Of a DNA stretch of 64,000 bases, positions 40,974 to 58,150 are shown piece by piece. Source of the DNA: an uncultured Christensenella sp. (lineage in GTDB: Bacteria; Bacillota; Clostridia; Christensenellales; UBA1242); NCBI GenBank assembly GCA_949300385.1, contig CASGDZ010000002.1:42989-106988 (forward strand), given 5' to 3'. Under the pieces are notes generated by a model. That model saw only the letters and a program-made list of their open reading frames with translations, was not told where the DNA came from and ran no database searches. The translations under genes were made by a program, and so were the position numbers. Numbering within the stretch: the first letter of the stretch is position 1; each line of letters begins with the position of its first letter.

Positions 40974-41672
40974 ATGAAAATTAAAGATATGAAAATTGAG
41001 CGTGAAGAGATTGAGCGCGCCATGCTAAAAATATTATTGAAAGAATGCGAAATAAAAATAGACATTAACCAATTTGAACCAAATGAATATAGGGACATGA
41101 TTGAAAAGTTGGTTTTAATGCGTTCTGATTTCAATGTAAGTGAAGAATATAAATCGCTCGAAGATAAATTGCTATCATGTGAAAACAAGTCAAATCTATT
41201 AAATCTATCAAAACAAAAATTCTTTGGAAGAATAAAAATTGTGGAAGAATCGCTTATTGATTCAAATGCAGATTTGCTAATTTTAATAACATATAGTTAT
41301 TTTAGTGAAGATTTCAATAGTGATAGTGTTAATTCAAAAATTATTTTAAAAGCGGGATTGCAATTAAAGCAAGATCTTTATACAGAACAAAAGAAAAACA
41401 ATTTTAATTTATCGAACAAAAGTATTTCAATAGTTAAAGGAAGGAATCTTAATGCTAAATATCTATCCATCATATGTCTTCCAAATGAAAGTGATATCGA
41501 AGATCTCAATCTCTATTTTTCTAAATTGGTTGAGTTTACAATTGATAATAAATTAAAAAATATAGTTATAATAATTGATAAATTTCAAAATGATTTAAAT
41601 TTTATTAATAGTATAAAAAATATTTCAAAAATTAATAAAAAATTAAAAATATTTATAAATATTATAAAATAG
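40974..41672 (+). CDS. Degenerate macro-domain protein (homolog of Firmicute protein-ADP-ribose hydrolase with lost catalytic motifs)
   Basis: The N-terminal helical region (EYRDMIEKLVLMRSDFNVSEEYKSLEDKLLS) parallels the staphylococcal macro-protein N-terminus as I recall it. In the macro core, IVEESLID replaces WQGDIT, LLILITYS replaces AIVNAANS, and NLNAKYLSIICLP replaces NLPAKYIIHTVGP. Confidence 0.45.
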   Translation: MKIKDMKIEREEIERAMLKILLKECEIKIDINQFEPNEYRDMIEKLVLMRSDFNVSEEYKSLEDKLLSCENKSNLLNLSKQKFFGRIKIVEESLIDSNADLLILITYSYFSEDFNSDSVNSKIILKAGLQLKQDLYTEQKKNNFNLSNKSISIVKGRNLNAKYLSIICLPNESDIEDLNLYFSKLVEFTIDNKLKNIVIIIDKFQNDLNFINSIKNISKINKKLKIFINIIK

Positions 41673-41739: not shown

Positions 41740-42213
41740 TTATAAATATTTAAATATAATAACATTTATATGTTCTAGTGTTGTAATAATTTTTGTAATA
41801 ATCATATTCAAACTCGAGATGGTCGAATTTGCTAGTGCTTTGTAATATGGTTTTTCTTCGTGAATTTGCCATTCTAAAACAAAAGATATGCATTCAGAAA
41901 TCTTTTTTATGAATGTAAATAAATTAAAATTTTTTACTTCATCGCTTTTTACGGATATAGAAAATGATGATTCAAAATTTTCAATTATTTTATCTATTTC
42001 AGATTTTGCATATGATATGCCATCTTTTATTTTTTTATTAAGATTTTCATCTACTCCTAAACATAATTGTCTGCAATGGATCAATTCAAAATAAATTTTA
42101 TTAACTATTACATTTCGTTCGGTAGGGCGATTTTGATATGCGCGCATTAACCTTAGATATGCGTCATCATCTAAGATGGGAGAGTCATTAAAATATGGTT
42201 TATTATAATCCAT
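41740..42213 (-). CDS. Hypothetical protein (157 aa)
   Basis: An intact ORF with no motif I recognise. TATAAT (42224-42219) lies 5 nt upstream of the ATG, and there is no SD. Confidence 0.4.
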   Translation of the reverse strand: MDYNKPYFNDSPILDDDAYLRLMRAYQNRPTERNVIVNKIYFELIHCRQLCLGVDENLNKKIKDGISYAKSEIDKIIENFESSFSISVKSDEVKNFNLFTFIKKISECISFVLEWQIHEEKPYYKALANSTISSLNMIITKIITTLEHINVIIFKYL

Positions 42214-43809: not shown

Positions 43810-43830
43810 ATTTACCTTCTTATTTATTAA

Positions 43831-43859
43831 ATTATAATGAAAAATGTTAAATATGTCAA
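43831..43859 (-). promoter_or_regulatory. Consensus sigma-A promoter for cysS (short leader, no T-box)
   Basis: On the minus strand, TTGACA (43859-43854), a 17-nt spacer and TATAAT (43836-43831), then about 21 nt containing GAAGG before the ATG. Confidence 0.65.
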
Positions 43860-44177
43860 CAATATAGGTCGATTAAAATTTTTATAAATAAAATAAAAAA
43901 ATTAAAAAATAATTAATTTTAATTGATTTTTGTTTAATTTTTTATAATTTTTAATAAATTTTATATAATTTTTTAAAATTTTCATTAAAAATATTAATTT
44001 TACAAAAATTTTTTAATTAAAATAAAAATAAACTTTTTGCTAAAATATGTAATTAATTTAGTTATTTAATTTATCAACAACAATTTTTTTATTTATTTAG
44101 GGAAAATCTAAATTCGCAAAATATAAAAAATATTAATTTATATTAAAATATAATTTTAAAATTTATGCGTTATTTAT

Positions 44178-44206
44178 TTGATAAAAATTCAACAATGTGT
44201 TAAACT
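44178..44206 (+). promoter_or_regulatory. Candidate promoter for the giant-lipoprotein / SipW / TasA-like operon
   Basis: TTGATA (44178-44183), a 17-nt spacer and TG-n-TAAACT (-10 at 44201-44206), with SD AAGGGG before the ATG at 44243. Confidence 0.45.
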
Positions 44207-44242
44207 ATTTTTAGACAAGATTAGACATAAAAAGGGGTTTGT

Positions 44243-47200
44243 ATGTCAAAAGTAAAAAATAGGGGAATTTACATTTTAATAATTTTAGCGTTCCTTTCAT
44301 TTTTTGCATTTGGATGTGAGAAGGAGCTTCGCGTTGACGATATTTATTTTGCTGAAGAATCTATAACTTTAGTAGTTGGTGAAAGTTATAAGCCAAACAT
44401 AATTATTCAACCTAGTTATGCGGACAATACAGGATATACGCTTTCTAGTTCGAATGATCAGTACTTATCAGTAAACGGAGATACTATTACTGCCAACAAA
44501 GTGACCGATAGCGCGGTATATTTGCAAGTAACATCAAGCGATAATAATTTAAAAACAGATATCATTCGCGTATATGTAATTGTGCAAACTATAACCTTAG
44601 ATACTCCTAGAAATTTGACATATAACTCAGATAATCAATCGATCAGTTTTAGTGCTGTAGAATATGCGCAATCATATATCCTTAGGGTGAATGGACAAGA
44701 TATAAATATAGGCAATGTGACTAATTATTCACTAGCCGATTTAAGTACACGCATAAACGGAAATGTTTTTGATACAAAATTAAACATACAAGTTAGAGCG
44801 GTTGCTAATACAAACACTTCTGCATATAAGAATTCGGAATTGTCGTCAGCAATCATGTTCTATCAGACAAGTGCCCCTTCAAATGCTGATATCACGAATG
44901 GAGTGTTGTCTTATAGCGGAAACGCAGATAAATACGCTATTTTATTTAATGATGATAATATTCTTTCGACAAGTCTAACGACTATAGATTTAACTTTGGA
45001 CGCAAAATACGCAGGTATGTCAGGCGAACTTAGTGTTGTTGCAATGACAGAAGGTGAAGAGATAGGTGTGCAATATTATAATTCACAACCAACAGAATTA
45101 AATGTGAATGTATTAGATGTTGCTAGTGCGAATGTCCAAGCAGGGGTTTTGAGTTGGAATAATGTAATGTACGCGGGTTCATATAACATTTATATGGATT
45201 CAAAATTGCAAGCAAATGTTCAGGATAATTTCATTTCTATTAGTGATTTTGCAGACTATGGTACAATCGTGAATAATGATAGCGGTTATAATATTACCAT
45301 TGATCCGATTTTATATGAAAATAGCAAAAATATTTTAAGAACTAACGCTAAAAGTGAAGCGCTTATCATAAATAAATTGTCTACACCTATTGTCATAAAT
45401 AATGCAGGATTAATCAGTTGGGACAATATTGAGAATGCGACTCAATATGTCGTTGAGATATCTTATGTTTTAAATGCCGAGACGAAAAAAGAAAGCATGA
45501 CTATTAGCAATAATAGTATAGATATTAGTGCAAATAATTTTCCATCGAACATTGAATATACAATTTCAGTAAAAGCCATAAATACTACAAATTCAAGCAT
45601 ATATTATTTAGATTCTGACTATGCTTCAATTCAAGTATTTAAAGAAGATGAAGCGGACATTTATATTGAAAATTATAAATTATACATAAATTCAACTATA
45701 CAAGATAAATATTTAGTTAAAATTGACGACAATGAGCCAATAACGATAACCGCTGATAGCAATATAACAGAATACGACCTAACAGGCATTGAATTTAATG
45801 TTGGCGAACATTCAATTTCGGTATGCCATTTAGGAGACGAAAATTCATCTAGCAGTAATGCTACGCTAATAACATTTGTACAATTGGGGCTATTAGATAA
45901 TGCTCAAATAGAAAATGGTGTAGCCAGCGCAAGTTCATCACTTCAATTTGAAACATTATTATTTGAAATTTACAATGGGCAATCATCGTTTTATTCGACA
46001 ACAGGATTAAGTCTAAATATAAACACTACTGAGCAAGCGGGTGAAGGATATTTGCCTAGCGGAAATTATAAATTGTATATTTCAGCATTAGGTGACGGAA
46101 GTAAAACATTCTCTAGCAAAGAAAAATCAGAACTTGATTTTGAAGTGTTGGCTACTCCAACTTTTGATTTCGTTAATAAAGATAGTACAACAATCTCTTT
46201 CTCAGAGATAGAGAATGCAAAAAATTATCTACTTTTATTTAACGAGCAACAAATTGAACTAAATACAAATAGTTATGAATTTGATATTTCAGCCGGTCAG
46301 ACTATTGAATTCTTCGTTCAAGCCATAGGAAATGGGTCGAATACATTAAGTTCAAACCTATCTCAAGGACACAAAGTTATTAAATTGAACACTCCTTCGT
46401 TAAGTTTCAACAACACAACAGATGTTATAGAAAAAATAGATAATAATGACGCCGAGTTGGTCAATGGATATTCATTCGTGCAAGTTATTAATGGCATGCT
46501 AACAACCATTGATTACGACTTTAATAGTCCGTATACACAATTTAGCGCGGGAGAAAATAACTTCACATTAATGTTAATAGCGCGCGATGCGGATACCGAT
46601 AATAACATTTCATATTTAAATTCTGACAGCGTAAGTTTAATGATAAATGTGATAAATGGCGAAACAGAGATTTATATAGATTCTCAAAATCGTTTAGTGA
46701 TTAAGTCGCAAGATTTAAATGAACATGCGTTATTGCTTAATATTATTTCTAACGATGAAAGGATTGAACTTGAAGGTAGAGAAGGTACATTATCTAATAA
46801 GAATAAAGATATAAATTTAAATTATACTTTTGATAATGGTGTATATTATGTGGAAATCTTAAATAATGATTATACATTAAAAATCTCTACTTTGTCAGAA
46901 TTTTATGTACAAGTAAAATTGTTAGCAGATGATGAGGGTATGGCAAATAGTACTCTTAGTGAAAGTAAAACAATAGAGTTTGAAAATCCGACTACATTTA
47001 ATGTCGAGCAGTTTGATGATGAGAACATAGCGTTTAGCAATTTAGCAAAAAATTATACTGAATATGCGCTTTTAATTGATGGAAACAAAACTTTGCCCCT
47101 GACTAATGACTCTGTAAGTTTAGATGCAGACGCCGGCGTTATAAAGGTCAAAGTCGCATACATATATGAAAATATTGAAGAAAATACTGAAGTCATTAGC

Positions 47201-50200
47201 GTCGCAGTAATAAGTTTAAATAATTCAAGTAATGCCGAAAATCCTACTATCTCTAAGGTTGGACAGGCAATAAAAATTGCACGAAATCAACTCGTGGATC
47301 TTAACGCCAAAAAGGATAATACACAATCCAACAATTCAATAGAATTATCATTTAATTTATTTGAGACAACATATGCAAAATCATATGTACTTGAAATTTA
47401 TAATAAATCGAATGAAGAAGCAATCAATGTTAGACAATTTACATTTACTGACCAAAATGATACTGATTTAGATGGTGTAATATCGTTATATTTAGATGAT
47501 TATATTTCTTCTAATTTAAATGATACAATGTTAAGTTCTGAAATCTTCGTTAGATTATATGTCAAATCAAATGCAACCGATATAATAGATGGCGAAACGG
47601 TGTATATTTTCAATTCGCCAGCATCTAGTGAATTAAATTATACTTTATTAGATTCGGTTAGCGATATTAAGATTAAAAATGGCGAACTTACATTTAGTCC
47701 TGTCGAAAACGCAGTGGGTTATGATGTCTATAAATTAGACGGCTCAAATTTAGTAAAAATCAATAATAATTTAATTATTGAAAATCATTATTCACTTGCC
47801 GATATGAGCGGGAATATGAAGATTTTCGTACGCGCAGTATCAGATGAAAATTTAATATATTCTAACTCAGATTTGAGTGCTCAGATACAAGTAAATAAAC
47901 TTAATATCCAGTCTGTGAATGTGGAAAATGGGGATTTGGTGTTGAATTTAGATCCTACAACAATCGGTTTGATATCGACGACTGAGGTTGATGCAAACAC
48001 TGACATATCCACATTTAACGGTGTACTTGTTCGAGTTATTAATGGAAATAATATTTACTATTTTACTTCGACGAGTGAAGGGGTTAAAATATTAGATAAT
48101 AAATTTATAATTGAAGCAAGTAAATTATTAAACTATGGTGTAGATAATATTCAGTTAGAGAATTTGAAATTTAATCTTATTACAAATTACATTGAAGAAG
48201 AAACAATCTACTATCTAAATTCAAACGCTGTCAATCTTGGAGTTTATGGATTATTAAGACCTACTAATTTAATTAAAATAGCAGATTCTAGCAATGAGCA
48301 ACTTGAGTACATATCTTGGAAAGAAAGTGAATTAAATCATATGACAATTCAAGATGTAGATACGAATTTAACTGCTGGATATGTATTGAGAGTTAGAGTT
48401 GGGGATAATATATATTATTCAACTGATATCAACTTAAAATATGCAGATAATGACAAGTTCTTAAGTTATGACAATGTCATTACTTCAACATCAATTCCTG
48501 CACCATACGGCTATGATTTAGACGGAGATGGATTAATAAATGATAACGAAAGATTTATAGCAGGAGTCTACTATTTTGCAGTAAAAGCAGTACCTAATTC
48601 AATAGATGGAGTAAATATTGTATCATCGGCCTATTCGGACGAGTTGATTGTCAATATTATGGTTGCACCTTCTCTCACTATTAAAAACGGACAAATAACT
48701 TGGGATCAAGATAACGATGCGACAGGATACATTGTATCAATCTTTGACCAAAATATGGAATTAAATACTACACCGATTTTCACATATACAGCAAGCGAAA
48801 ATTTCTTCGATTTTAGTGGACAAACTTTTGACAGCCTTACAGGGATATATGGTGTAAAAGTACAATCTATTAGTACCAAAAACAATGTGTTAAATAGTCA
48901 AATAAGCGAAGGAATTTATGTATTTAGATCGAATGAAGCCGAGTCAATAGAAGTAGATGACGGCAACCTTATTCTTGAAGCAAATCAATATTTCACAAAT
49001 GCCGAAATAGAATTTGTGGATAATACTACAGGAAGAAAAGAATATATATACTTCAATTATGAAGACATCGCGAATGACAACATAGACGCTTTAAAATCAG
49101 GAGAAGAAAGCGGTTGGTTAGACTACATTGATAATCAAGACGAAATTAAGTCGGTTAAGAAAATCCTTATAAAAATAAATGATAGCAATATCTTAAATAT
49201 AACACAAGGAAGAAGTTACACTATCAATGTTCGTTTAATTGGTAATAGCAATAATGACTTTGGCGTAATAAATTCAAAGACGACTAAAAATATTAGCCAA
49301 ATAAATGTCGTCAAACTTAGTCAAAGTGCATCTAATGTTGAATTAGTAGAAGTTAATAAGGGTGTATTTAGTTATAATTATTTAGAGAACTATGACGGAA
49401 TTAATCTAAATTTTAATTTTAACAATTCAACAGGCATTTCGCCTTTCTTTGAACAGGTAAAGATTTATCGTGTTTTGTTAGAAACTTCTAGCGCAAAACA
49501 TTATATATATGCTATAGATTTTAATAATTTTAATGAATATTATAGTCTATTAGATGAATCCGATTATTTTATCTTCAGTGATCAAGATAATCTTGGCGGA
49601 TTATATGCGTATGTAAAATACAATTACACGCGTACTGATGGTCAGAGTGGAAGTCTGTATTTTAATGTATATAAAAATAATGAAATTAATTTACGCGATT
49701 ATGACTATTTATACTATTACGATATAATTACAGATGAGTCAAATAGCGAAATCATATATACTTCTAGTGGAGAACGCGCTTATATTGACTTAGCATCGGG
49801 TGGTTCGTTTGTAATTTCTATAAACTTGCTTGGTGGAGATAGCAACATTGAGAGCAATGAAAGTAGTATAATCTCGCATATAGCATATATAAATTCAAAC
49901 GCAATACAGACTAATACATTTGTACGTTATAGCGACAACAATTTGACAGCATACAATGGTCTAATTAAATTCAATGATTTGATGCCGGAAGATGATCTTG
50001 GAGCAGTGATAGACTATCCTATTTATCGTTTAGTTGTGACTCCATTAAATGAAGTTGAAAGTAAAATTATATATGTTTACTACACTTCAGAAGAAGATGC
50101 TAGACAAGTAGTTAATGATCAAAATGCAATATATGTAAAGGCAGAATTTGTTAAGACACTTCCTGATAGCGTACTATTTGATATGTCAAAATATTTTACA

Positions 50201-53050
50201 GCAGGCACATATCAAGTAACTATTCAGACACTTGCAGGATTAGGTAACGACTCACAAAATTCAGATTATTTATTAAATGCGCGCCTACCTATCAATAGTA
50301 CAGTATTTAAGAAAATAACCGACACAACATTCAGAGCAAATTTAGGTGTATTGAATTTTGATATGGCGTATGTCTATGACAATAATGTTATAAACTATGT
50401 TTATAATTATGAAATCACATTAAGTAATGGACAAGAAGAATATGTGTTTGAAATAAATGAAAATACTTCAGGTATTACAATAGATAACAATGCACACACC
50501 ATTTCATATGAACTTCCAGATTCAATACAAATCGGAGAAGAGATTATAACAATTGACAATTCGGCAAATTATACAATTAAAATAAGAGCACTTGCTTTCA
50601 ATAGCCAAGATAGAATAAATGGTACATATGCTCAATCAGATAATGAAGATATAGTGTTATCGTTTACTCGTTCATCAGGTGTGGAAAATGTTAGAATAGA
50701 AGACGGCGTATTAAAATTTGTCGTTATAGATAGAGATAATTTCAGTCAGGCACGAATTAAATTGACATACCTAGATTCTACAAGTAATGAATGTATTGTA
50801 CTCATCACAACACGCGCTAATGAATATATTGAGGACGGAATTTATCAATACCACTATTATGAATTCAGTTATGCAGTTGGTTCGACTTATCCTATTCAAG
50901 GCGGATTGGGCAACATGCAACTCGATTCAGGAATTGATTATAATGTATCAGTTCAAGTATTAGGAAAGAATGGAGAAACTGCTATTTTGAATAGCAATTA
51001 TAGTCAATCAATTATAGCAACACGACTTGCACGAGTTGATACGGCAGATATAAAATCACAGGACGGAATTCTAACTTGGAATGTTGTTGAAAATTGTAAA
51101 GAATATATTGTTACATTGTCAGGAGAAGACACATACACATTTAAGGTTAATACAAATTCAATTGATTTCGAAACAACTTTAGATGAGCAAGGCAGATACC
51201 TTCCAAGCGGAGATTATAAAATATCTATTCGCTCATTGGGCGATGAAATACTTAATTCGCGCGCGTCTAATAAAACGGAAGAATTTACACGATTAGCACA
51301 AGTAAGTAATATTAGAATCGATCCAAATAATTTAAATTCGGTTATTTGGGACGAAGTAAGCAAAGCAACGCGATATGAGGTCATATTCACATATGGAGAA
51401 AATGAGCCTATAACACAATATGTACAAACTAATTCATGTATTGCGCCTAGTGGAATGTCTGGTGCATTTACTATAAAAGTTAGAGCATTATCACAAGGCG
51501 AAGGAAAGACGCTTAACGGAACATATGGTTCGTTCACAAGTAGCACTGATCAGCCACAAGCGGTTGGTGCAGTTCAATGGGATAGCACAAATTATTTCTA
51601 TTATTTTGCTACAGCAAGCGATTTCTCGTCAGGCGACAGAATATTAGTAAGTTACGACTTTAGACCATACATTAAGACGCTTAATGGATATACGATTTCT
51701 CAGGAAAGTGAACAAGTGGAAGTTTATATCAATTACGGGCAGTCGGACGCGCAAATAATGATAGGCGATAGTCTATACTATTTCTATCAACCTACTCGTA
51801 TGGGACTTTATACGAGTGTAGTTGTACAAATAGAGCGAACGGGCAGTCTATATTCAAGTGCGAGTCGCGGTGATGATCTTGATTTCAACATTTTTGCTTA
51901 CGGCAGTGGTACAAGTCTAGACCCATATGGTTTAGGAACGGATACGCATTTGTTAAATATAAAATCGAAACCTAACGCAATATACGAATTGTATAGTTCA
52001 ATTAGTTTGCAATCAGTTGATATTGATTCACGCGTAAATGAAAATGGTGCTATAGTATGTGACGAATTTAGTGGTACAATCAATGGTGGCGGTTATTCAA
52101 TTATTGGAATTGGGGACATAAGTCTAAATTCACGACAAACATTTGGTTTATTCAAGAAATTAAATGGTGCTACTATTGAAAATCTTATGATTGGTTCGCA
52201 GGATAGCAATATAAATATTACAAATTCATTTGCAAATAATGTAGGAGCAGTGATACAATTAGGATTGTTAGCAAGTTATAGTGAGAATTCTAATATTAGC
52301 GAAGTTAACATTTATAATATGAACTTTATAATTAATAGTTCAACAACTATTAGTGGCGCACAAATATATGTTGGCGGTATGTTCGCCCAAGCGGTTAATA
52401 CAACGATAAGTCAATCGTCAATTCAAACAAACATTGAATTTAATGCAACTATTAGCGCTACATCAACTATTTATCTTGCGGGCGCAGTAGCAGAAGCGAA
52501 AACAACAGATATCAGCACAATTGATGTAACCTTTACACTCACACAAAGTGTATCGAGCAACCTATTCACATATGTGGGCGGAATAGTAGGATTCATAAAC
52601 GGAGGAACTGATTCAAATTACGCGATTAATGAATCTAACGCAAATGTCACAATGTCAAATGTATATACCGTATACTTCGGCGGTATAGCGGGTGTGGCTA
52701 GAAATATTGATATTACAGCAAGCGAGACTAGTGGCAGGTTTGCGAATACTAATCTCACTGGCGGCAAGTATATTGGCGGTATTGTAGGTATGGGAACAAG
52801 TGTTAGAATCACAGAGTCAGATGTATACTTAGTATTTGAATTCAATATCGCAAATACGAGCGCTCTATATATCGGAGCACTTGCGGGTTACTTAAATACA
52901 ATCAACAACATAGAGTGCAGTTATGATTTATGCAATATTGGGTATGATTTCATTAATGGCGCAACAACTTATACAACTAATAATATGAATATCGGTGTTT
53001 ATGGCTATCGTTCAAACGATGTCATAACTGGTACATGTGAAAGAATTTAA
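44243..53050 (+). CDS. Giant surface lipoprotein (2935 aa): Big_2 domain, long Fn3-like repeat array, C-terminal GLUG-motif beta-helix
   Basis: It has a lipobox (FFAFGC) and an N-terminal Big_2-like domain (ITLVVGESYKPNIIIQPSYADNTGYTLSSSNDQYLSVNG). Many modules carry the W..V.NA..Y.V signature (LSWNNVMYAGSYNIYM, ISWDNIENATQYVVEI, ITWDQDNDATGYIVSI, LTWNVVENCKEYIVTL, VIWDEVSKATRYEVIF). The C-terminus has FSGTINGGGYSI, FGLFKKLNGATIENL and repeated GG[IM][VAF]G turns (VGGIVGFI, FGGIAGVA, IGGIVGMG). Confidence 0.8.
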   Translation: MSKVKNRGIYILIILAFLSFFAFGCEKELRVDDIYFAEESITLVVGESYKPNIIIQPSYADNTGYTLSSSNDQYLSVNGDTITANKVTDSAVYLQVTSSDNNLKTDIIRVYVIVQTITLDTPRNLTYNSDNQSISFSAVEYAQSYILRVNGQDINIGNVTNYSLADLSTRINGNVFDTKLNIQVRAVANTNTSAYKNSELSSAIMFYQTSAPSNADITNGVLSYSGNADKYAILFNDDNILSTSLTTIDLTLDAKYAGMSGELSVVAMTEGEEIGVQYYNSQPTELNVNVLDVASANVQAGVLSWNNVMYAGSYNIYMDSKLQANVQDNFISISDFADYGTIVNNDSGYNITIDPILYENSKNILRTNAKSEALIINKLSTPIVINNAGLISWDNIENATQYVVEISYVLNAETKKESMTISNNSIDISANNFPSNIEYTISVKAINTTNSSIYYLDSDYASIQVFKEDEADIYIENYKLYINSTIQDKYLVKIDDNEPITITADSNITEYDLTGIEFNVGEHSISVCHLGDENSSSSNATLITFVQLGLLDNAQIENGVASASSSLQFETLLFEIYNGQSSFYSTTGLSLNINTTEQAGEGYLPSGNYKLYISALGDGSKTFSSKEKSELDFEVLATPTFDFVNKDSTTISFSEIENAKNYLLLFNEQQIELNTNSYEFDISAGQTIEFFVQAIGNGSNTLSSNLSQGHKVIKLNTPSLSFNNTTDVIEKIDNNDAELVNGYSFVQVINGMLTTIDYDFNSPYTQFSAGENNFTLMLIARDADTDNNISYLNSDSVSLMINVINGETEIYIDSQNRLVIKSQDLNEHALLLNIISNDERIELEGREGTLSNKNKDINLNYTFDNGVYYVEILNNDYTLKISTLSEFYVQVKLLADDEGMANSTLSESKTIEFENPTTFNVEQFDDENIAFSNLAKNYTEYALLIDGNKTLPLTNDSVSLDADAGVIKVKVAYIYENIEENTEVISVAVISLNNSSNAENPTISKVGQAIKIARNQLVDLNAKKDNTQSNNSIELSFNLFETTYAKSYVLEIYNKSNEEAINVRQFTFTDQNDTDLDGVISLYLDDYISSNLNDTMLSSEIFVRLYVKSNATDIIDGETVYIFNSPASSELNYTLLDSVSDIKIKNGELTFSPVENAVGYDVYKLDGSNLVKINNNLIIENHYSLADMSGNMKIFVRAVSDENLIYSNSDLSAQIQVNKLNIQSVNVENGDLVLNLDPTTIGLISTTEVDANTDISTFNGVLVRVINGNNIYYFTSTSEGVKILDNKFIIEASKLLNYGVDNIQLENLKFNLITNYIEEETIYYLNSNAVNLGVYGLLRPTNLIKIADSSNEQLEYISWKESELNHMTIQDVDTNLTAGYVLRVRVGDNIYYSTDINLKYADNDKFLSYDNVITSTSIPAPYGYDLDGDGLINDNERFIAGVYYFAVKAVPNSIDGVNIVSSAYSDELIVNIMVAPSLTIKNGQITWDQDNDATGYIVSIFDQNMELNTTPIFTYTASENFFDFSGQTFDSLTGIYGVKVQSISTKNNVLNSQISEGIYVFRSNEAESIEVDDGNLILEANQYFTNAEIEFVDNTTGRKEYIYFNYEDIANDNIDALKSGEESGWLDYIDNQDEIKSVKKILIKINDSNILNITQGRSYTINVRLIGNSNNDFGVINSKTTKNISQINVVKLSQSASNVELVEVNKGVFSYNYLENYDGINLNFNFNNSTGISPFFEQVKIYRVLLETSSAKHYIYAIDFNNFNEYYSLLDESDYFIFSDQDNLGGLYAYVKYNYTRTDGQSGSLYFNVYKNNEINLRDYDYLYYYDIITDESNSEIIYTSSGERAYIDLASGGSFVISINLLGGDSNIESNESSIISHIAYINSNAIQTNTFVRYSDNNLTAYNGLIKFNDLMPEDDLGAVIDYPIYRLVVTPLNEVESKIIYVYYTSEEDARQVVNDQNAIYVKAEFVKTLPDSVLFDMSKYFTAGTYQVTIQTLAGLGNDSQNSDYLLNARLPINSTVFKKITDTTFRANLGVLNFDMAYVYDNNVINYVYNYEITLSNGQEEYVFEINENTSGITIDNNAHTISYELPDSIQIGEEIITIDNSANYTIKIRALAFNSQDRINGTYAQSDNEDIVLSFTRSSGVENVRIEDGVLKFVVIDRDNFSQARIKLTYLDSTSNECIVLITTRANEYIEDGIYQYHYYEFSYAVGSTYPIQGGLGNMQLDSGIDYNVSVQVLGKNGETAILNSNYSQSIIATRLARVDTADIKSQDGILTWNVVENCKEYIVTLSGEDTYTFKVNTNSIDFETTLDEQGRYLPSGDYKISIRSLGDEILNSRASNKTEEFTRLAQVSNIRIDPNNLNSVIWDEVSKATRYEVIFTYGENEPITQYVQTNSCIAPSGMSGAFTIKVRALSQGEGKTLNGTYGSFTSSTDQPQAVGAVQWDSTNYFYYFATASDFSSGDRILVSYDFRPYIKTLNGYTISQESEQVEVYINYGQSDAQIMIGDSLYYFYQPTRMGLYTSVVVQIERTGSLYSSASRGDDLDFNIFAYGSGTSLDPYGLGTDTHLLNIKSKPNAIYELYSSISLQSVDIDSRVNENGAIVCDEFSGTINGGGYSIIGIGDISLNSRQTFGLFKKLNGATIENLMIGSQDSNINITNSFANNVGAVIQLGLLASYSENSNISEVNIYNMNFIINSSTTISGAQIYVGGMFAQAVNTTISQSSIQTNIEFNATISATSTIYLAGAVAEAKTTDISTIDVTFTLTQSVSSNLFTYVGGIVGFINGGTDSNYAINESNANVTMSNVYTVYFGGIAGVARNIDITASETSGRFANTNLTGGKYIGGIVGMGTSVRITESDVYLVFEFNIANTSALYIGALAGYLNTINNIECSYDLCNIGYDFINGATTYTTNNMNIGVYGYRSNDVITGTCERI

Positions 53051-53066
53051 CAAAATAGGGGAGAAA

Positions 53067-53705
53067 ATGAATTATTCGGATAGCATATTAGAAAATAAAT
53101 TATTCAATCTGTTTAAGCAAGGCTTATACTATATAGTTTTATCTATAATCATTATTTTGGTTGGCTGTTTAGTCCTTGTATACGGCTTTCATTTTCGCCC
53201 TTATAATGTTTTAACAAATAGTATGTATCCGGTATATGGTGCGGGCGATTTAGTTGTAATTAAACCGCAGAGCGATTATAATGTAGGCGATACTTTAAAA
53301 TTTGACCATAATGGCACACCAACACTTCATAGATGTGTAGCAAAGTTTGAATATAGTGGCACTATCTATTATATTTGTCATGGTGATAATGTACAAAATT
53401 TAGACGGCAGTGACGCAGATCAAGATTGGCGTGACGATGTCGAGTGGATAAATAATAAAGATAATATTGATATTGAGAGTATGACACCAAATGAGATTGA
53501 AACACAATTAGGAATTAATGCTCAAGTTGTATCAGAAAACAAGGTCGAAGGTGTAGCCGTTACAAGTTTTTCTAGATGGGGAACATATTTTGAATTTATT
53601 AAAGAACACAATGTTTTAATTATCGCGATAGTAATATCAATTTGGTGCGTTGTGGAGACAATACAAAACGAGACGGAAATTAAGCGAAGTTTGAGGTTAA
53701 TGTAA
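53067..53705 (+). CDS. sipW: SipW-type (ER/archaeal-type, S26B) signal peptidase I
   Basis: It aligns with B. subtilis SipW motif by motif: NSMYPVYGAGDLVVIKP (GSMEPT..G), GDTLKF (GDIITF), TLHRCV (VTHRI), CHGDN (KGDNN). It also has a C-terminal TM helix. I set the start at MNYSD, after GGGGAG. Confidence 0.75.
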   Translation: MNYSDSILENKLFNLFKQGLYYIVLSIIIILVGCLVLVYGFHFRPYNVLTNSMYPVYGAGDLVVIKPQSDYNVGDTLKFDHNGTPTLHRCVAKFEYSGTIYYICHGDNVQNLDGSDADQDWRDDVEWINNKDNIDIESMTPNEIETQLGINAQVVSENKVEGVAVTSFSRWGTYFEFIKEHNVLIIAIVISIWCVVETIQNETEIKRSLRLM

Positions 53706-56107
53706 TGTATAGAGCAAAAACCAAAACTAAATTAGCATATAGTTTACTCGCCATACTTGGCGTGGTTTTTGCATTTATAATAGGGGTCACATATTGTGCT
53801 TCTGCGTTTTTACTCAATGTCGGGAGCAACGGATATTCGACTTCTACATTTGTCGCGAAACAACAATACGCAATCATTAATGATACGAAGACTAGTCCAA
53901 TTCCTTTTGGATCAGGTGCGCATAACTATGAAGTAGCGATACAATATTCGTATAGTTACGATATAGATGTAAGGATAAAATATTCATTATCTTGGTCGGA
54001 CGGGCTAGATACTCATAATGTAATATTGAATTATGCTAATCGTGATAACTTCATGGTAGATGATACATATATATATGTTCGCGATACAATAGACGCAGGT
54101 ACAGGGAAATTGACAATTTTTACAGGGGTTGATTTTACCGATACAAACGATTTAAATTATGTCGGCGCGTATTTGACGATAAATATCGACGAAGTAAAAG
54201 TATATAAAGCACAAGACTCATATAATAGCGAACATGCGCTTGTAAAAGATATAAATTTAAACAATTATCCATCAGCACAAGCGTGGTTAAAATACAAGCA
54301 AAATGATAGTTCTTCGTCTGCATTTGTTATCTCATACAACAAACTATATGGTCAATATGGTGCAAAACACCCTATTAATGCCGGCGCATATTCAAAATTA
54401 AGTGATAATTATCGTTGGTTGGGTGGAAATCAATATTACGCAGGTGTAGGTATATATATTGTAACGGGTAGTAGTCCTATAAAATTGACTGCGAAGGTTA
54501 GTGCTAGGTGGATATCTTCTGGCAGTGGGCAGTCTGGACAAATCTATGAAAACAATATTAAGTTAAATTATGCAGATAATTGGCAAATAGATTCAACTCA
54601 AACGGACGAGATATTCCCAACTTATTATTATACAATGCAAATACCTGCGCATAGTGCAGTATATATCGAGATAATTGATAATTTAGAAATAACTACACGA
54701 GGTTCAAATTTTGATACTAGCGTATATTCAAATAGTCAAGCGGTAATATTTTCGTTATATCTGAACGAAGACAATTCAGTATTTACATATATAGAAAATA
54801 GTAGTATTTCATTTGGAGAGATTGAAACTTCGAATTCAAGTTTAGTTAGTTCAGTCAATACCGCCTATAGTCAAGAAGATTATACAATAATAAATTCGAC
54901 GGATTATTCATCTCTACTATACACTTATAATAACACAGCGAGTCAGCAAGTATATGAAATAAACCTTAGTGTTACAAATAATACTGCAAACGCCATGCAG
55001 TTGAATTCGCTGTCATTTACATTGGGTTATTATGTTTCAAATGGTAACAATAGCCCATATTTAGGTGATGACTTTGGCTCGACAGATTGGTATAGATGGG
55101 AAGATAGTGCAAGTTCTTCTTATATATCGGTCAGAGAGTCAAGCAATAATTATATACCGGCGTATAGTACAACAAATATTTCAACATATATAACAGTTTC
55201 CGCCAATTTCCAAACAGATTTAATTGAAAACAATTTTGGCAGTTATGATTGTTATGTATACTTAATTCCGAATTTGTCAATCTCAACAATTTCGTCCAAT
55301 ATTTCACAATCAGACATTGAATTTGGAGTGGATGAAGACAGCAATTTAGGTGTTTTCTATTTAAAAAATAATACAACATCAGTTTTGAATATTACATCAG
55401 TTAGTTTAAAACTGCAAAAAATCAATTATGAGTTCACTGCACTACAAACATTCCCTACAACTTGGGCTAATGATTACTGGCAATATTATGTTTATGACAG
55501 CGCAAGTGGAACTTATATTAGAAATACTACTTCTGATCAAAGTGCGGGAGCAAGGAATTTCTATCAATTAACTATTAATAACGAAACTATCTCGTTTAAT
55601 AATGCAACTAGTTATAATGGATTTTCTCGTTCAGGGGATACATTTACTAATTCGAGCGCAAAATTAAAGCCGGGAGAAACGATTCTGGTTGCAACTATGC
55701 CACTTACTTTCACTATAAATAATGGATATGTGCGTTATGCAATGCAATATTTAGATAGTTCTACTCCAAGCGTAAACGCTTCTGCATCAAATAACGATAC
55801 TATTGATATTATGTTCGAAGGAACGGATAATGCATATATAATAAACAATTCAGATTCAGCATATTTCGTACGATTTACAGGCACGACAATGCAAAATACT
55901 GGTATACTAACAGACGGAAGTTGGAATTATTTTATAGGTATAGTTCGTGCAGGACAAATACAAAAGATACCAATGTCTAGCGTTACAGGAACAATCAATG
56001 TCGAATACATTTTAGTGCCAGAGACATTCACATCTTCCACCCTCTCGAGTTGGTCGCCTAGTCAATCAGTCTTAGACGCATTTGATACTTACTTTTTAGG
56101 AGAATAA
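53705..56107 (+). CDS. Large secreted S/T/N/Y-rich protein (800 aa), candidate fibre-associated or accessory component
   Basis: Its ATG overlaps the sipW stop (TAATG). It has an N-terminal hydrophobic signal ending in CASAFLLNVG. I recognised no catalytic motif, and the composition suggests a beta-rich fold. Confidence 0.55.
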   Translation: MYRAKTKTKLAYSLLAILGVVFAFIIGVTYCASAFLLNVGSNGYSTSTFVAKQQYAIINDTKTSPIPFGSGAHNYEVAIQYSYSYDIDVRIKYSLSWSDGLDTHNVILNYANRDNFMVDDTYIYVRDTIDAGTGKLTIFTGVDFTDTNDLNYVGAYLTINIDEVKVYKAQDSYNSEHALVKDINLNNYPSAQAWLKYKQNDSSSSAFVISYNKLYGQYGAKHPINAGAYSKLSDNYRWLGGNQYYAGVGIYIVTGSSPIKLTAKVSARWISSGSGQSGQIYENNIKLNYADNWQIDSTQTDEIFPTYYYTMQIPAHSAVYIEIIDNLEITTRGSNFDTSVYSNSQAVIFSLYLNEDNSVFTYIENSSISFGEIETSNSSLVSSVNTAYSQEDYTIINSTDYSSLLYTYNNTASQQVYEINLSVTNNTANAMQLNSLSFTLGYYVSNGNNSPYLGDDFGSTDWYRWEDSASSSYISVRESSNNYIPAYSTTNISTYITVSANFQTDLIENNFGSYDCYVYLIPNLSISTISSNISQSDIEFGVDEDSNLGVFYLKNNTTSVLNITSVSLKLQKINYEFTALQTFPTTWANDYWQYYVYDSASGTYIRNTTSDQSAGARNFYQLTINNETISFNNATSYNGFSRSGDTFTNSSAKLKPGETILVATMPLTFTINNGYVRYAMQYLDSSTPSVNASASNNDTIDIMFEGTDNAYIINNSDSAYFVRFTGTTMQNTGILTDGSWNYFIGIVRAGQIQKIPMSSVTGTINVEYILVPETFTSSTLSSWSPSQSVLDAFDTYFLGE

Positions 56108-56108
56108 A

Positions 56109-56798
56109 TTGAGATATAAGAGCAAAGGGATTTTAATATTGTCGTTATTCGCCACAATGGTGTTAATCTTTTTGCTCGCAATAAATGTCGTTTTGGCTTA
56201 CTTTACTTCAAGGAGCAGTGCAAATGGAATATTTACATTCGGTGAACTTAATGTGAATTATGTATATCGAACGATGACTTCGGGTGCGAGCGTCGCAGTG
56301 AGTGGCAATACACTTAACCTTATACCAGACAGCACACAAATAAAGAGAGGAGATACATTTTTGTTTAAGTTGAACGACAATGGTGTTGCGACTGATACAA
56401 TAGAGAGTTTGCAATTTCGTTCAAGTGCAAATTCAACATCTGCATATATTCGTTTTAGAGTAAATGCTTACATATTGAATTCATCAGGGGAAATAATTAA
56501 TAATACTAATTATGGTCAGTATTTTAGATTAAACTATGGTTCAGCGTATGTGACCTATAACACAATTACAAACAATTCAGAGACAAATACAATCTATTAT
56601 GTTACACGCGCACTGCCTAGTAATACCACATATACATTTGCTAATAGCATGACACTTTTAACTAATGCACCTGCCGAAATACTAAATACTGATGTAAAAA
56701 TCACAATCACATTTGAAGCAGTACAAGCATCTAACGAGGCTTATAAATCAGTCTTTAATGACGGGTGGGGATATTTAAACGAGGAGTATTGGACATAA
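56109..56798 (+). CDS. TasA/camelysin-like protein with SipW-cognate signal peptide
   Basis: It uses a TTG start after AGGAGA. The signal peptide ends in VVLAYFTSRSSANGIFTFGELNV, and the C-terminal strand is KITITFEAVQASNEAY, typical of the family. Confidence 0.65.
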   Translation: MRYKSKGILILSLFATMVLIFLLAINVVLAYFTSRSSANGIFTFGELNVNYVYRTMTSGASVAVSGNTLNLIPDSTQIKRGDTFLFKLNDNGVATDTIESLQFRSSANSTSAYIRFRVNAYILNSSGEIINNTNYGQYFRLNYGSAYVTYNTITNNSETNTIYYVTRALPSNTTYTFANSMTLLTNAPAEILNTDVKITITFEAVQASNEAYKSVFNDGWGYLNEEYWT

Positions 56799-57422
56799 AT
56801 GTTAAAAAATAGGTACAAGTCAAATTCAATATTAATTTTAGCACTAATTTTAATATGTGCTTGTGTTTTTGTACCTATGATGGTAGTTCAAGCATGGTTC
56901 ACCGCAGGAGAAGGCAAAAGCATTGAAATTGTTGCACACATTGCTGATATCAATATAAAATTATATCAAGTGGATGATCAAAACAATGAAACTAATATTG
57001 AAAGTGATACCCCAACCTATATTGATTTGACGAATGGCGGTGAGAATTTAGAGATTTTACCGGACGAGCAATATTCGCTTCATTTGGTTTTAAAAAATGA
57101 AGATGTAGGCGCTACATCTGTGAAATTGCGCTTTAGCATTGAGTTTTATATCAGTACGAGTGATGGAGACCAACTTATTAATAGTGAAATTATAGGATAT
57201 ACTAACCCGACTAATGATTCAAACGGATTTATATATTCTAATACAGATAATTATTATGTCTATAGTTCACTTGACGGGAATGAGCAGACTTTCCCTTCTG
57301 GTTCTCAAGTGGACATTATAACAGGATTTACGATTCCATATAATTCATTTATAGACTCAAACGGAGAACCTATATTAAATGGCAATAATTTAAAGATTGT
57401 TGTATCAGTGGAAACTTATTAG
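56799..57422 (+). CDS. Second TasA-like protein with SipW-cognate-type signal peptide
   Basis: It starts immediately after the previous stop codon. The signal peptide ends in MVVQAWFTAGEGKSIEI, and the size is similar to the neighbouring TasA-like protein. Confidence 0.55.
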   Translation: MLKNRYKSNSILILALILICACVFVPMMVVQAWFTAGEGKSIEIVAHIADINIKLYQVDDQNNETNIESDTPTYIDLTNGGENLEILPDEQYSLHLVLKNEDVGATSVKLRFSIEFYISTSDGDQLINSEIIGYTNPTNDSNGFIYSNTDNYYVYSSLDGNEQTFPSGSQVDIITGFTIPYNSFIDSNGEPILNGNNLKIVVSVETY

Positions 57423-57429
57423 GAGTGAA

Positions 57430-58134
57430 ATGTCAAAGTACGAAGAAAAACTCGCCGAAATAGTACGCGAAAAGATGAAAGATCAGTTAGATGCTACGGA
57501 TAAAAAAACCGAAGCCAATCTTTCTAATGACAAAATCAAATCCCAGCCAAGTCTTAAAACAAAATTAAAATCAAAGTCTATAGAATTAATGGAGCTAGAA
57601 GAGATTAACGAGCAAAATATAAAAAATTATAAAGCGAGAAATACTCGTAATAAAGCACTTATTGTTATATTGTCTGTCCTTTTGGCTATTTCTGTGGCTA
57701 CTATAGCGATATTACTAACTATGACATATTACCGGAACAATTCGTTCCTTTATATTCATGGTGGTGTAGACGCCGTATATTTAGTAGATGGTAAAGAGAC
57801 GGATAAATTTAGAACACCTAATGATGTACAGGGAAATAGATTGCTAGATATAGATATTGAAGTCAAGATGAAAGAAGCTGGCACTTTTAATATTAGATAT
57901 GTAATAGAAGTTTATCAAGGTGATACAAGAGTAGAAAATTTAGATGTACCAAATTTTGATAGTCGATTCATAAAGGGTACAAATGCAAGTTTTACAAGCG
58001 AAAGTGCCATAACTCTCAAATATAACGATACGATATTGCTTTGCAGTGGTATATTGTTTGACTCACAATATGAAGATAGTTTAAATATAGACAATTTCCG
58101 TATGGAGATACACATATATTTTGAAAGAGTTTAA
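57430..58134 (+). CDS. Single-pass (type II-like) membrane protein, candidate anchor or assembly factor of the operon
   Basis: I set the start at MSKYEEK, after AGGAGTG. It has a charged cytoplasmic N-terminus, one TM helix (ALIVILSVLLAISVATIAILLTM) and an extracellular domain of about 135 aa. Confidence 0.5.
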   Translation: MSKYEEKLAEIVREKMKDQLDATDKKTEANLSNDKIKSQPSLKTKLKSKSIELMELEEINEQNIKNYKARNTRNKALIVILSVLLAISVATIAILLTMTYYRNNSFLYIHGGVDAVYLVDGKETDKFRTPNDVQGNRLLDIDIEVKMKEAGTFNIRYVIEVYQGDTRVENLDVPNFDSRFIKGTNASFTSESAITLKYNDTILLCSGILFDSQYEDSLNIDNFRMEIHIYFERV

Positions 58135-58150
58135 TTTAAAACTCTTTTTT
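58123..58150 (+). terminator. Intrinsic terminator closing the 44243-58134 operon
   Basis: A 9-bp stem (aaagagttt / aaactcttt) includes the stop codon and is followed by a T-run. Confidence 0.55.

Follow-up and report, generated by a model that had tools for sequence, protein, structure and literature searches.

Organization of the locus

We describe here a cassette of six genes, designated G1 to G6, in a 64,000-nucleotide stretch of DNA (hereafter the window) from an uncultured Christensenella sp. (assembly GCA_949300385.1, contig CASGDZ010000002.1, positions 42,989 to 106,988), the sequence of which is identical to ENA metagenome contig ERZ17292904, k87_22628925 (187 kb). An earlier reading made from the letters and open reading frames (ORFs) alone, referred to below as the sequence-only reading, had compared these genes to the TasA fibre operon of Bacillus subtilis. 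The explanation that we consider most likely, with roughly an even chance (probability approximately 0.5) of being correct, is that the cassette encodes a SipW-dependent system for a pilus-like fibre on the cell surface, one that is specific to a single clade among the uncultured gut Christensenellales.

Six tightly packed ORFs of the same orientation, all on the forward strand, are confirmed by the ORF list at positions 44243-58134: G1 (44243..53050, 2935 residues), G2 (53067..53705, 212 residues from the preferred ATG, with an alternative GTG start at 53037), G3 (53705..56107, 800 residues), G4 (56109..56798, 229 residues from a TTG start), G5 (56799..57422, 207 residues), and G6 (57430..58134, 234 residues from the preferred ATG, with an alternative TTG start at 57397). 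The three junctions quoted in the sequence-only reading are exact: the stop codon of G2 and the start codon of G3 overlap as TAATG at 53705, G3 ends at 56107 and G4 starts at 56109 (a 1-nt gap at 56108), and G4 ends at 56798 immediately before the first base of G5 at 56799. Its general description of overlapping or abutting genes does not extend to G2 and G6, for which later starts are more likely. The ATG at 53067 is preferred for G2 because it is preceded by the ribosome-binding site GGGGAG and the public gene call also has 212 residues, and the ATG at 57430 is preferred for G6 because AGGAG precedes it and the public gene call has 234 residues; both genes are therefore preceded by short gaps and not by overlaps. 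The long form of G4, starting with TTG at 56109, is backed by full-length homologues, the public gene call being a shortened protein of 145 residues. No cassette protein reaches the threshold of any Pfam or NCBIfam family, and no functional name is attached to these proteins in the databases searched, in which one G3 relative is called 'hypothetical protein' and the others are nameless. A search of the available literature found no description of the cassette, nor of surface filaments in Christensenellales.

Conservation of the cassette across genomes

The distribution of the cassette was surveyed by scanning a profile of G3 homologues against one genome per GTDB species. This gave 20 loci, all of them in metagenome-assembled genomes (MAGs) of uncultured Clostridia, Christensenella or Candidatus Onthoplasma (assigned to Christensenellales by NCBI), which came from human, sheep and other gut samples. 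The order G1-G2-G3-G4-G5-G6 is kept in 16 of the 16 complete loci, with each protein detected by phmmer, and it persists down to approximately 32% identity between G3 sequences. The co-occurrence in relatives that the sequence-only reading had proposed as a check is thus seen in all complete loci, and additionally in two loci with other surroundings. Since cysS upstream and sufC-sufB downstream are likewise kept in the 16 complete loci, their synteny alone could reflect descent. The two further loci, which are more distant, have the same order with other flanks. In the first (L021, of which L020 is a near-duplicate), a diverged giant protein of at least 3034 residues, a peptidase of 276 residues, a G3-like protein of 1148 residues, a G4-like protein of 296 residues with the motif ATYSYFTAT, a G5-like protein of 609 residues and a G6-like protein of 286 residues precede a hisS-like gene and a hydrogenase. 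In the second (L022), a partial G3-like gene (hhalign probability of 94%), G4, G5, G6 and an extra paralogue are followed by unrelated genes; the region upstream is cut off, so that the presence of G1 cannot be judged there. The same order beside different flanks indicates that the G3-G6 core at least, if not the whole cassette, behaves as a unit.

These data also bear on the simplest alternative, namely that the six genes have no functional unity, being neighbours by shared ancestry with a convergent or compositional resemblance between their signal motifs. As cysS and sufCB beside the cassette are conserved in 16 loci too, synteny alone does not disprove such an explanation. However, the tight start/stop junctions, the order kept at approximately 32% identity, its recurrence with other flanks in L021 and L022, and the presence of three paralogues (see below) next to a peptidase with known relatives that act on substrates of this kind all speak against it, and we regard it as extremely unlikely. 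The cassette is genuine and more than a chance neighbourhood. Relatives of G4 were also searched for in viral contigs and none were found; a phage origin is therefore not indicated.

A divergent signal peptidase

The best NCBIfam match of G2 is TIGR02228 sigpep_I_arch (E = 9e-11), with 41.9 bits against a cut-off of 51.85; in Pfam, it reaches 20.1 bits for Peptidase_S26 (cut-off 22.9) and also matches Peptidase_S24 below threshold. Against the equivalog model of Bacillus SipW (NF046067), G2 scores 22.3 bits, far below the cut-off of 190, and it is therefore not an orthologue of Bacillus SipW. Among PDB sequences it is matched best by human SEC11C and SEC11A, to whose SGSMEP, HRV and GDN boxes, which we take to hold the catalytic residues of SEC11, the residues Ser52 (NSM), His88 (LHR) and Asp107 (HGDN) of G2 are aligned. 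All three residues are invariant in 17 orthologue sequences. With Ser in box B, His rather than Lys in box D and the Asp of GDN, G2 has the residues expected of an ER/archaeal-type signal peptidase I (MEROPS S26B), so that the SipW-type S26B peptidase with conserved Ser and His that had been suggested from the sequence holds, and the Asp is conserved as well. Hydropathy analysis places membrane segments at the N- and C-terminus of G2, and SipW also has N- and C-terminal membrane segments. Judged by these residues, G2 is a divergent but apparently active signal peptidase I of the endoplasmic reticulum (ER)/archaeal (SipW/SEC11) Ser/His type. It is in this respect unlike the SipA-type proteins of some streptococcal pilus loci, which are catalytically dead chaperones.

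A family of small paralogous proteins

The signal helix of G4 ends in VVLA/YFTS (the slash marks the predicted junction), the family consensus being TYA/YFTA, and the mature protein would be approximately 22 kDa. In G5 the signal ends in VVQA/WFTA, with the orthologue consensus TN[AS]/WFTSG. Both conserved ends are similar to SipW-cognate signals. G4 has few close relatives, and an exhaustive profile search with an E-value limit of 1e-3 gave 165 clusters formed at 50% identity. Two proteins that scored highly in this search, P0102 and P0114, were rejected as relatives because repetition inflates scores; they are LPXTG proteins with Ig-like repeats. An alignment of 107 G4-family sequences out of the 165 clusters (A2) shows invariant F32 and Q206 and the consensus NxTYAYFTA...FEAVQ..N.AY..VF.D..GY, and distant family members have the classic G-[SG]-TYAYFS motif. 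PDB sequence searches with G4, G5 and the profile of 107 sequences returned nothing meaningful.

Profile-profile comparison with hhalign relates G4 to G5 over their full length with a probability of 97.7% (E = 1.5e-12). For A2 against G5, the probability is 98.5% at full length and still 96.3% after the signal has been trimmed (E = 2e-9, 94 columns). G4 and G5 are therefore paralogues, and the view that the operon holds two small beta-rich proteins with an A-[YW]-F-T signal end is upheld in that the motif is conserved and the two proteins are homologous. The comparison further reaches G6: residues 67-232 of G6 align with G5 at 94.7% (E = 6e-8) at full length and at 82.5% after trimming, and the comparison of G6 with A2 gives 88% at full length and 23.5% (not significant) after trimming. 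The G6 ectodomain is thus probably a third copy of the G4/G5 domain that is still attached to its membrane helix. G6 is, as had been proposed, a type II membrane protein: it is bitopic, with an N-terminal cytoplasmic part of approximately 73 residues rich in Lys and Glu, a membrane helix at 74-101 and an ectodomain of approximately 130 residues. A cytoplasmic juxtamembrane motif (LEExNEQN..R.R..RN) is conserved, as is the membrane helix, which is followed by NNCFLY or NNSFLY; the A-x-F cleavage motif, that is, the pattern of a small residue before an aromatic residue and F, is absent from it. The paralogy of the G6 ectodomain, which was missed by the sequence-only reading, makes the reading of a fibre with an anchor more coherent, and within it G4 is the candidate major subunit and G5 the candidate minor subunit.

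This anchored paralogue also bears on an alternative in which the product would be a biofilm-matrix fibre released from the cell, with G4 polymerising extracellularly, G3, G5 and G6 boosting the yield and G1 being an independent adhesin. Matrix fibres are the product of the characterised operons that come closest, tapA-sipW-tasA and sipW-bsaABCRSD, and in the latter bsaB and bsaC encode accessory secreted proteins that affect yield only (PMC7395162). Moreover, one of the 107 G4-family members matches the BsaA family model TIGR04090; the G4 and G5 of the window do not match it. However, a membrane-anchored G6 is found in every locus, including L021 and L022, which a base anchor explains more easily, and we consider the released fibre unlikely.

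Several orthologues of the small proteins differ markedly in size. In L014 (13132-14895), the G5 orthologue has 587 residues and a large insertion that includes two copies of LPTGYTQ[LM]EYI; no alignment of this insertion with the C-terminal GLUG region of G1 described below was obtained (hhalign 0.1%). To judge from such sequences, G5 seems to act as a scaffold into which head domains that differ between species are inserted. The G6 orthologue of L009 (13803-14996) has 397 residues, its cytoplasmic N-terminal part being interrupted by a long insertion that resembles extra hydrophobic (membrane) segments. Enlarged G4-type paralogues of 347 and 360 residues are encoded in L018 (12336-13379) and L022 (3645-4727), respectively, and the one of 360 residues combines an acidic insertion with a signal of the classic form GGTYAYFSA, and matches Peptidase_M73 at profile positions 8-53 only.

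The secreted protein G3 and the giant lipoprotein G1

G3 is, as had been described, a secreted protein of 800 residues, and it is beta-rich. Its homologues have approximately 670-950 residues, are all unannotated and come from the same kind of organisms, and its N-terminal helix ends in the conserved VFA....G.T[YF][AC]A, a motif related in part to those of G4 and G5. An AlphaFold2 (AF2) model of G3, with a mean predicted local distance difference test score (pLDDT) of 84.7 and a predicted template modelling score (pTM) of 0.83, shows a chain of beta-sandwich domains. Its best PDB matches are complement C5 and C3, the Escherichia coli alpha-2-macroglobulin, CD109, transglutaminase beta-barrels and the BSP domain of Bap. 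These matches have E values of 3e-6 to 1e-3 and template modelling (TM) scores of at most 0.12, and the model accordingly supports a fold description of 'tandem beta-sandwich, macroglobulin-like' and nothing beyond.

G1 starts with a signal peptide and a lipobox (...FAFG-C25), and the mature protein would be acidic and of approximately 323 kDa. By pattern reading, an F-G-C lipobox (L-G-C in one case) follows a hydrophobic stretch in 15 of 16 orthologues, the N-terminus of the sixteenth being unreadable, which agrees with the lipid anchor that had been assigned to this protein. The lipobox is followed at residues 32-102 (44336..44548, forward strand) by a Big_2-like Ig domain, for which the window copy reaches 11.3 bits (cut-off 22.8). 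The domain gains its support from the orthologues, as Big_2 (PF02368) is found at the same position in nine of ten, two of them above the cut-off (30.7 and 30.1 bits). Nothing in the window copy of G1 is significant in Pfam, and neither BLAST self-comparison nor tandem-repeat analysis of the DNA detected internal repeats. Profile self-comparison does reveal related modules of approximately 90-115 residues at approximately 115-810, 1100-1230, 1410-1600 and 1980-2430. The 'dozens of Fn3-like modules' of the sequence-only reading have no support from the sequence, the modules of about 100 residues being visible at the profile level only: no Pfam fn3 match was obtained at E <= 5, and the module profiles reach at most 9% against two canonical Fn3 sequences in hhalign.

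Toward the C-terminus, at residues ~2558-2851 (51914..52795, forward strand), lies a region with GG[IL]xG repeats of GLUG type, and profile self-comparison shows an internal duplication at the C-terminus of G1 (2707-2816 and 2809-2915). There is no direct match of G1 to Pfam Glug (PF07581) even at E <= 5. The region does align with an insertion in the G5-like protein of L021 (14243-16072, 609 residues; hhalign 97.8%, E = 8e-13), and that protein matches Pfam Glug with 36.9 bits. A GLUG-type C-terminal head of G1, which had been read as a tip, is thus indirectly supported through this homologous sequence. The occurrence of a GLUG module both on G1 and on a G5-type protein hints that G1 and the small proteins are functionally coupled, and suggests that domains have been shuffled between the giant and the pilin-like components.

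In another alternative, the products would form a non-polymeric surface complex, in which G3-G6 would be stoichiometric partners in an anchored set of pedestal or chaperone proteins that hold, fold or present G1, and G2 would ensure their export only. G1 is always the first gene and the largest investment, the GLUG-type domain inside the L021 G5-like protein links it functionally to the small proteins, and the folds give weak evidence for a polymer of the TasA type, all of which would suit such an arrangement. Nevertheless, three small beta-sandwich paralogues with a conserved N-terminus after cleavage better fit a series of subunit, adaptor and anchor, and L022, with its G1 region cut off, keeps G3-G6 together with an extra paralogue; we find a pedestal unlikely.

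Relationship to TasA

Several results, most of which concern the similarity to TasA, weigh against a fibre. Neither G4 nor G5 matches Peptidase_M73 (PF12389), and the description of these proteins as TasA-like consequently fails at the level of that family. Three G4-family members and the L022 paralogue do match PF12389, at profile positions ~4-53 only, and going by these matches no G4-family member is clearly a Peptidase_M73 protein. For a direct comparison, the B. subtilis TasA sequence, checked to be identical to that in PDB 8AUR and 5OF1, was used together with a TasA family set of 111 full-length proteins, all annotated as PF12389 and from Bacillaceae only. Against this family, A2 reaches an hhalign probability of 6.5%, and only its residues 5-53 are aligned, to TasA 4-50, pairing NvTYAYFTa..G..f..l.v with GGTWAAFND...FAAGTLDL. 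With so narrow a TasA-family alignment (Bacillaceae only), the negative carries little weight. The family profiles of G3-G6 likewise align with it in the signal and donor-strand region only, without significance.

The donor strand of TasA has been defined experimentally as residues 28-38, with residues 39-47 as the linker (PMC9674648). Because the alignment covers TasA 4-50, the only recognisable similarity lies in the signal peptide and, within TasA 28-50, the donor-strand segment, the region modelled by TIGR04088 (cognate_SipW). The sequence-only reading had named this signal model as a check, and the outcome is divided: 13 of the 107 G4-family members match it (best E = 6e-7), but the G4 of the window, at 16.3 bits, stays below the cut-off of 19, and orthologues of G5 and G3 have no match at E <= 0.05. 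Both G2 and the window G4 are thus below curated cut-offs. G3 aligns with G4 at 82% over the full length in hhalign, and this similarity vanishes once the signal region is trimmed. A comparison of single sequences also pairs the last strand, ItisfEAVQ with QFSFEATQ, at 20%.

The structural evidence is of the same kind. The AF2 model of G4 (pLDDT 92.9) has a helix at 6-33, a coil of lower confidence and about 15 unstructured residues that extends to approximately 45, and then an all-beta sandwich that is jelly-roll-like. Foldseek found nothing in the PDB at E <= 1e-3. The best match, the archaeal TasA-like bundling pilin AbpA (7ueg), is weak (E = 8e-3, probability 0.35, TM ~0.2), the next ones are type II cohesins, the jelly roll of a picornavirus capsid and PA14 domains, and TasA is not among the top 50 matches. 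Finally, much of the synteny could be simple vertical inheritance, with L021 and L022 alone arguing for mobility as a unit. On the sequences and models together, G4 and G5 resemble TasA-class subunits in their signal, N-terminus and general fold class, and they are not demonstrable members of PF12389.

Proposed assembly and its implications

The fibre reading is directly supported in its parts list, in the paralogy of the small proteins, in the conserved catalytic residues and in the co-occurrence of the genes; from these we infer the formation of a fibre, along with cleavage, polymerisation, polarity and the attachment of G1. In the proposed sequence of events, G2 would cleave its substrates after a small residue (Ala30 in G4, Ala32 in G5 and near Ala33 in G3), exposing an N-terminal segment that would match the donor strand of TasA in position and pattern. 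G4 would then form the shaft, joined by G5 in a minor or adaptor role, and polymerisation would proceed by beta-strand complementation. By retaining its membrane helix, G6 could serve as a base at which the fibre is nucleated or terminated and through which it is held at the membrane. G3 would act as a TapA/AbpB-like accessory, either a nucleator or a tip protein, whose distal domains may bind targets, and G1 would be a co-expressed stalk adhesin approximately 100 nm long with a GLUG-type head, standing beside the fibre or attached to it.

Two other kinds of system can be set aside. A sortase pilus is rejected for the lack of LPXTG, no [LIV]PX[TSA]G motif being present in G1 or G3-G6, and a camelysin-type metalloprotease for the lack of HExxH. 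We put forward as a more tentative proposal, which we would not hold to be probable as a whole, that the cassette represents an undescribed class of monoderm pilus with donor-strand-like N-termini unmasked by a dedicated ER-type signal peptidase, a subunit family absent from Pfam and NCBIfam, G6 as base anchor and the 85-kDa G3 as tip or nucleator, coupled to the 323-kDa GLUG-headed lipoprotein, and that it is an adhesion organelle, peculiar to gut Christensenellales, by which they attach to the host or to a partner.

Christensenellales are heritable, health-associated gut bacteria that are largely uncultured, and to our knowledge their surface biology is essentially unknown. If the fibre reading is true, the SipW/TasA fibre principle of Bacillus, Clostridium perfringens and some archaea would be extended to a new subunit family, and an architecture that combines cleaved subunits with an uncleaved, anchored paralogue would be added to it. 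This would suggest a route by which a monoderm cell can hold on to sortase-independent fibres, a point still unclear in the case of TasA and TapA, and would make G1 and G3 candidate adhesins for host or inter-microbial attachment in the gut.

Flanking sequences and genomic surroundings

The cassette is separated from the divergent cysS gene by an intergenic region of 433 bp (43810..44242) with a GC content of 11.5%. It presumably holds the promoter of G1, of which no specific one can be named, and might be a regulatory or curved-DNA region; A/T tracts are abundant in this extremely AT-rich sequence and no particular element was recognised. The single promoter proposed at 44178-44206 is a 9/12 match, and the region contains 102 sigma-70-like matches compared with 95 +/- 12 in shuffled sequences, so that this element is no better than chance and carries no weight. 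At the other end, the terminator that had been placed near 58123-58150 corresponds to a weak AT-rich hairpin at 58125..58150 (forward strand), AAAGAGTT/AACTCTTT, with two G-C pairs and a following T-run. It did not pass the criteria of the terminator scan, and it is still plausible as a possible terminator before sufC. An Rfam search of the window detected no RNA families.

The flanks of the cassette are housekeeping genes, with the divergent cysS upstream, sufCB downstream, and gatCAB. A spoIIID homologue lies approximately 6.9 kb downstream on the same contig, which raises the question of a sporulation structure, that is, a layer or appendage of the spore surface. TasA was itself first described as the spore-coat-associated CotN, and many sources call its homologues 'spore coat-associated protein N'. 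Nevertheless, the cassette shows no sporulation-specific feature and sits among housekeeping genes, and anchoring through a lipoprotein and an N-in membrane protein points to the vegetative membrane, which makes a role in sporulation very unlikely.

Other large proteins are encoded in the vicinity. An ORF of 1495 residues at 7092-11579 (forward strand) has a Transglut_core domain (Pfam, E = 2.5e-8) toward its C-terminal part and is probably another very large surface or secreted protein of the window. On the same contig, at L001 20310-20624, about 16.5 kb downstream of the end region of the window, the public gene call includes a protein of 6807 residues, which starts approximately 9 kb downstream of the end of the cassette and comes after aspS, the spoIIID homologue and an ATP_bind_3 (TilS-like) gene; with this protein near the cassette, the organism encodes several giant proteins close together. 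Upstream of cysS, two ORFs of 232 residues (40974-41672, forward strand) and 157 residues (41740-42213, reverse strand) have no Pfam match, and the region at 40-42 kb has the lowest GC content of the window (25%).

Comparison with known systems

Within the B. subtilis operon tapA-sipW-tasA, as in the cassette described here, the gene of a dedicated ER-type peptidase adjoins those of its secreted beta-sandwich substrates, which in the cassette are putative. The signal of TasA ends in GTWA/AFND, compared with TYA/YFTA and NA/WFT here, all following the pattern of a small residue before an aromatic residue, F and a polar residue, and the donor strand and linker of TasA align with the first ~20 mature residues of the G4 family, at the probability of 6.5% given above (PMC9674648). 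Both also have a larger accessory protein, which is TapA (253 residues) in B. subtilis and the multi-domain G3 (800 residues) here. Unlike the B. subtilis operon, the cassette has G6, G5 and the lipoprotein of 2935 residues in addition, its gene order is different, and its mature domains have no significant match to PF12389. The core of TapA is described as closest to bacterial macroglobulins, and TapA shares a beta-sandwich domain with AbpB, a three-domain protein proposed to be a nucleator and adhesin (PMC9245690). The macroglobulin-like tandem beta-sandwiches of the G3 model are in parallel with both.

In the clostridial operon sipW-bsaABCRSD of C. perfringens, sipW is followed by a polymer-forming secreted protein of approximately 23 kDa and secreted accessories (PMC7395162). 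It differs from the cassette, in which two-component regulator genes are lacking and their place is taken by an anchored paralogue and a giant lipoprotein. Among archaea, Pyrobaculum calidifontis AbpA (7UEG), the best and still weak PDB fold match of the G4 model (E = 8e-3, TM ~0.2), relates to TasA, like G4, through sensitive comparisons only; the multi-domain beta-sandwich accessory AbpB parallels G3; and a single-pass membrane protein whose large ectodomain is beta-rich is likewise encoded in the Abp operon (PMC9245690). Unlike the cassette, this archaeal operon has no dedicated peptidase or giant lipoprotein. The sipW-tasA-capP(bc1280)-calY locus of Bacillus cereus is another expanded TasA locus, with two paralogous subunits and an additional assembly factor; its subunits are bona fide Peptidase_M73 proteins and, in contrast to the cassette, it is not known to encode an anchored paralogue or a giant lipoprotein. 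What the cassette has in common with these systems is a known principle, the combination of a SipW-type peptidase, beta-sandwich subunits with a cognate signal and an accessory protein, and its new elaborations are the subunit family, the anchored paralogue, the 800-residue partner and the giant lipoprotein.

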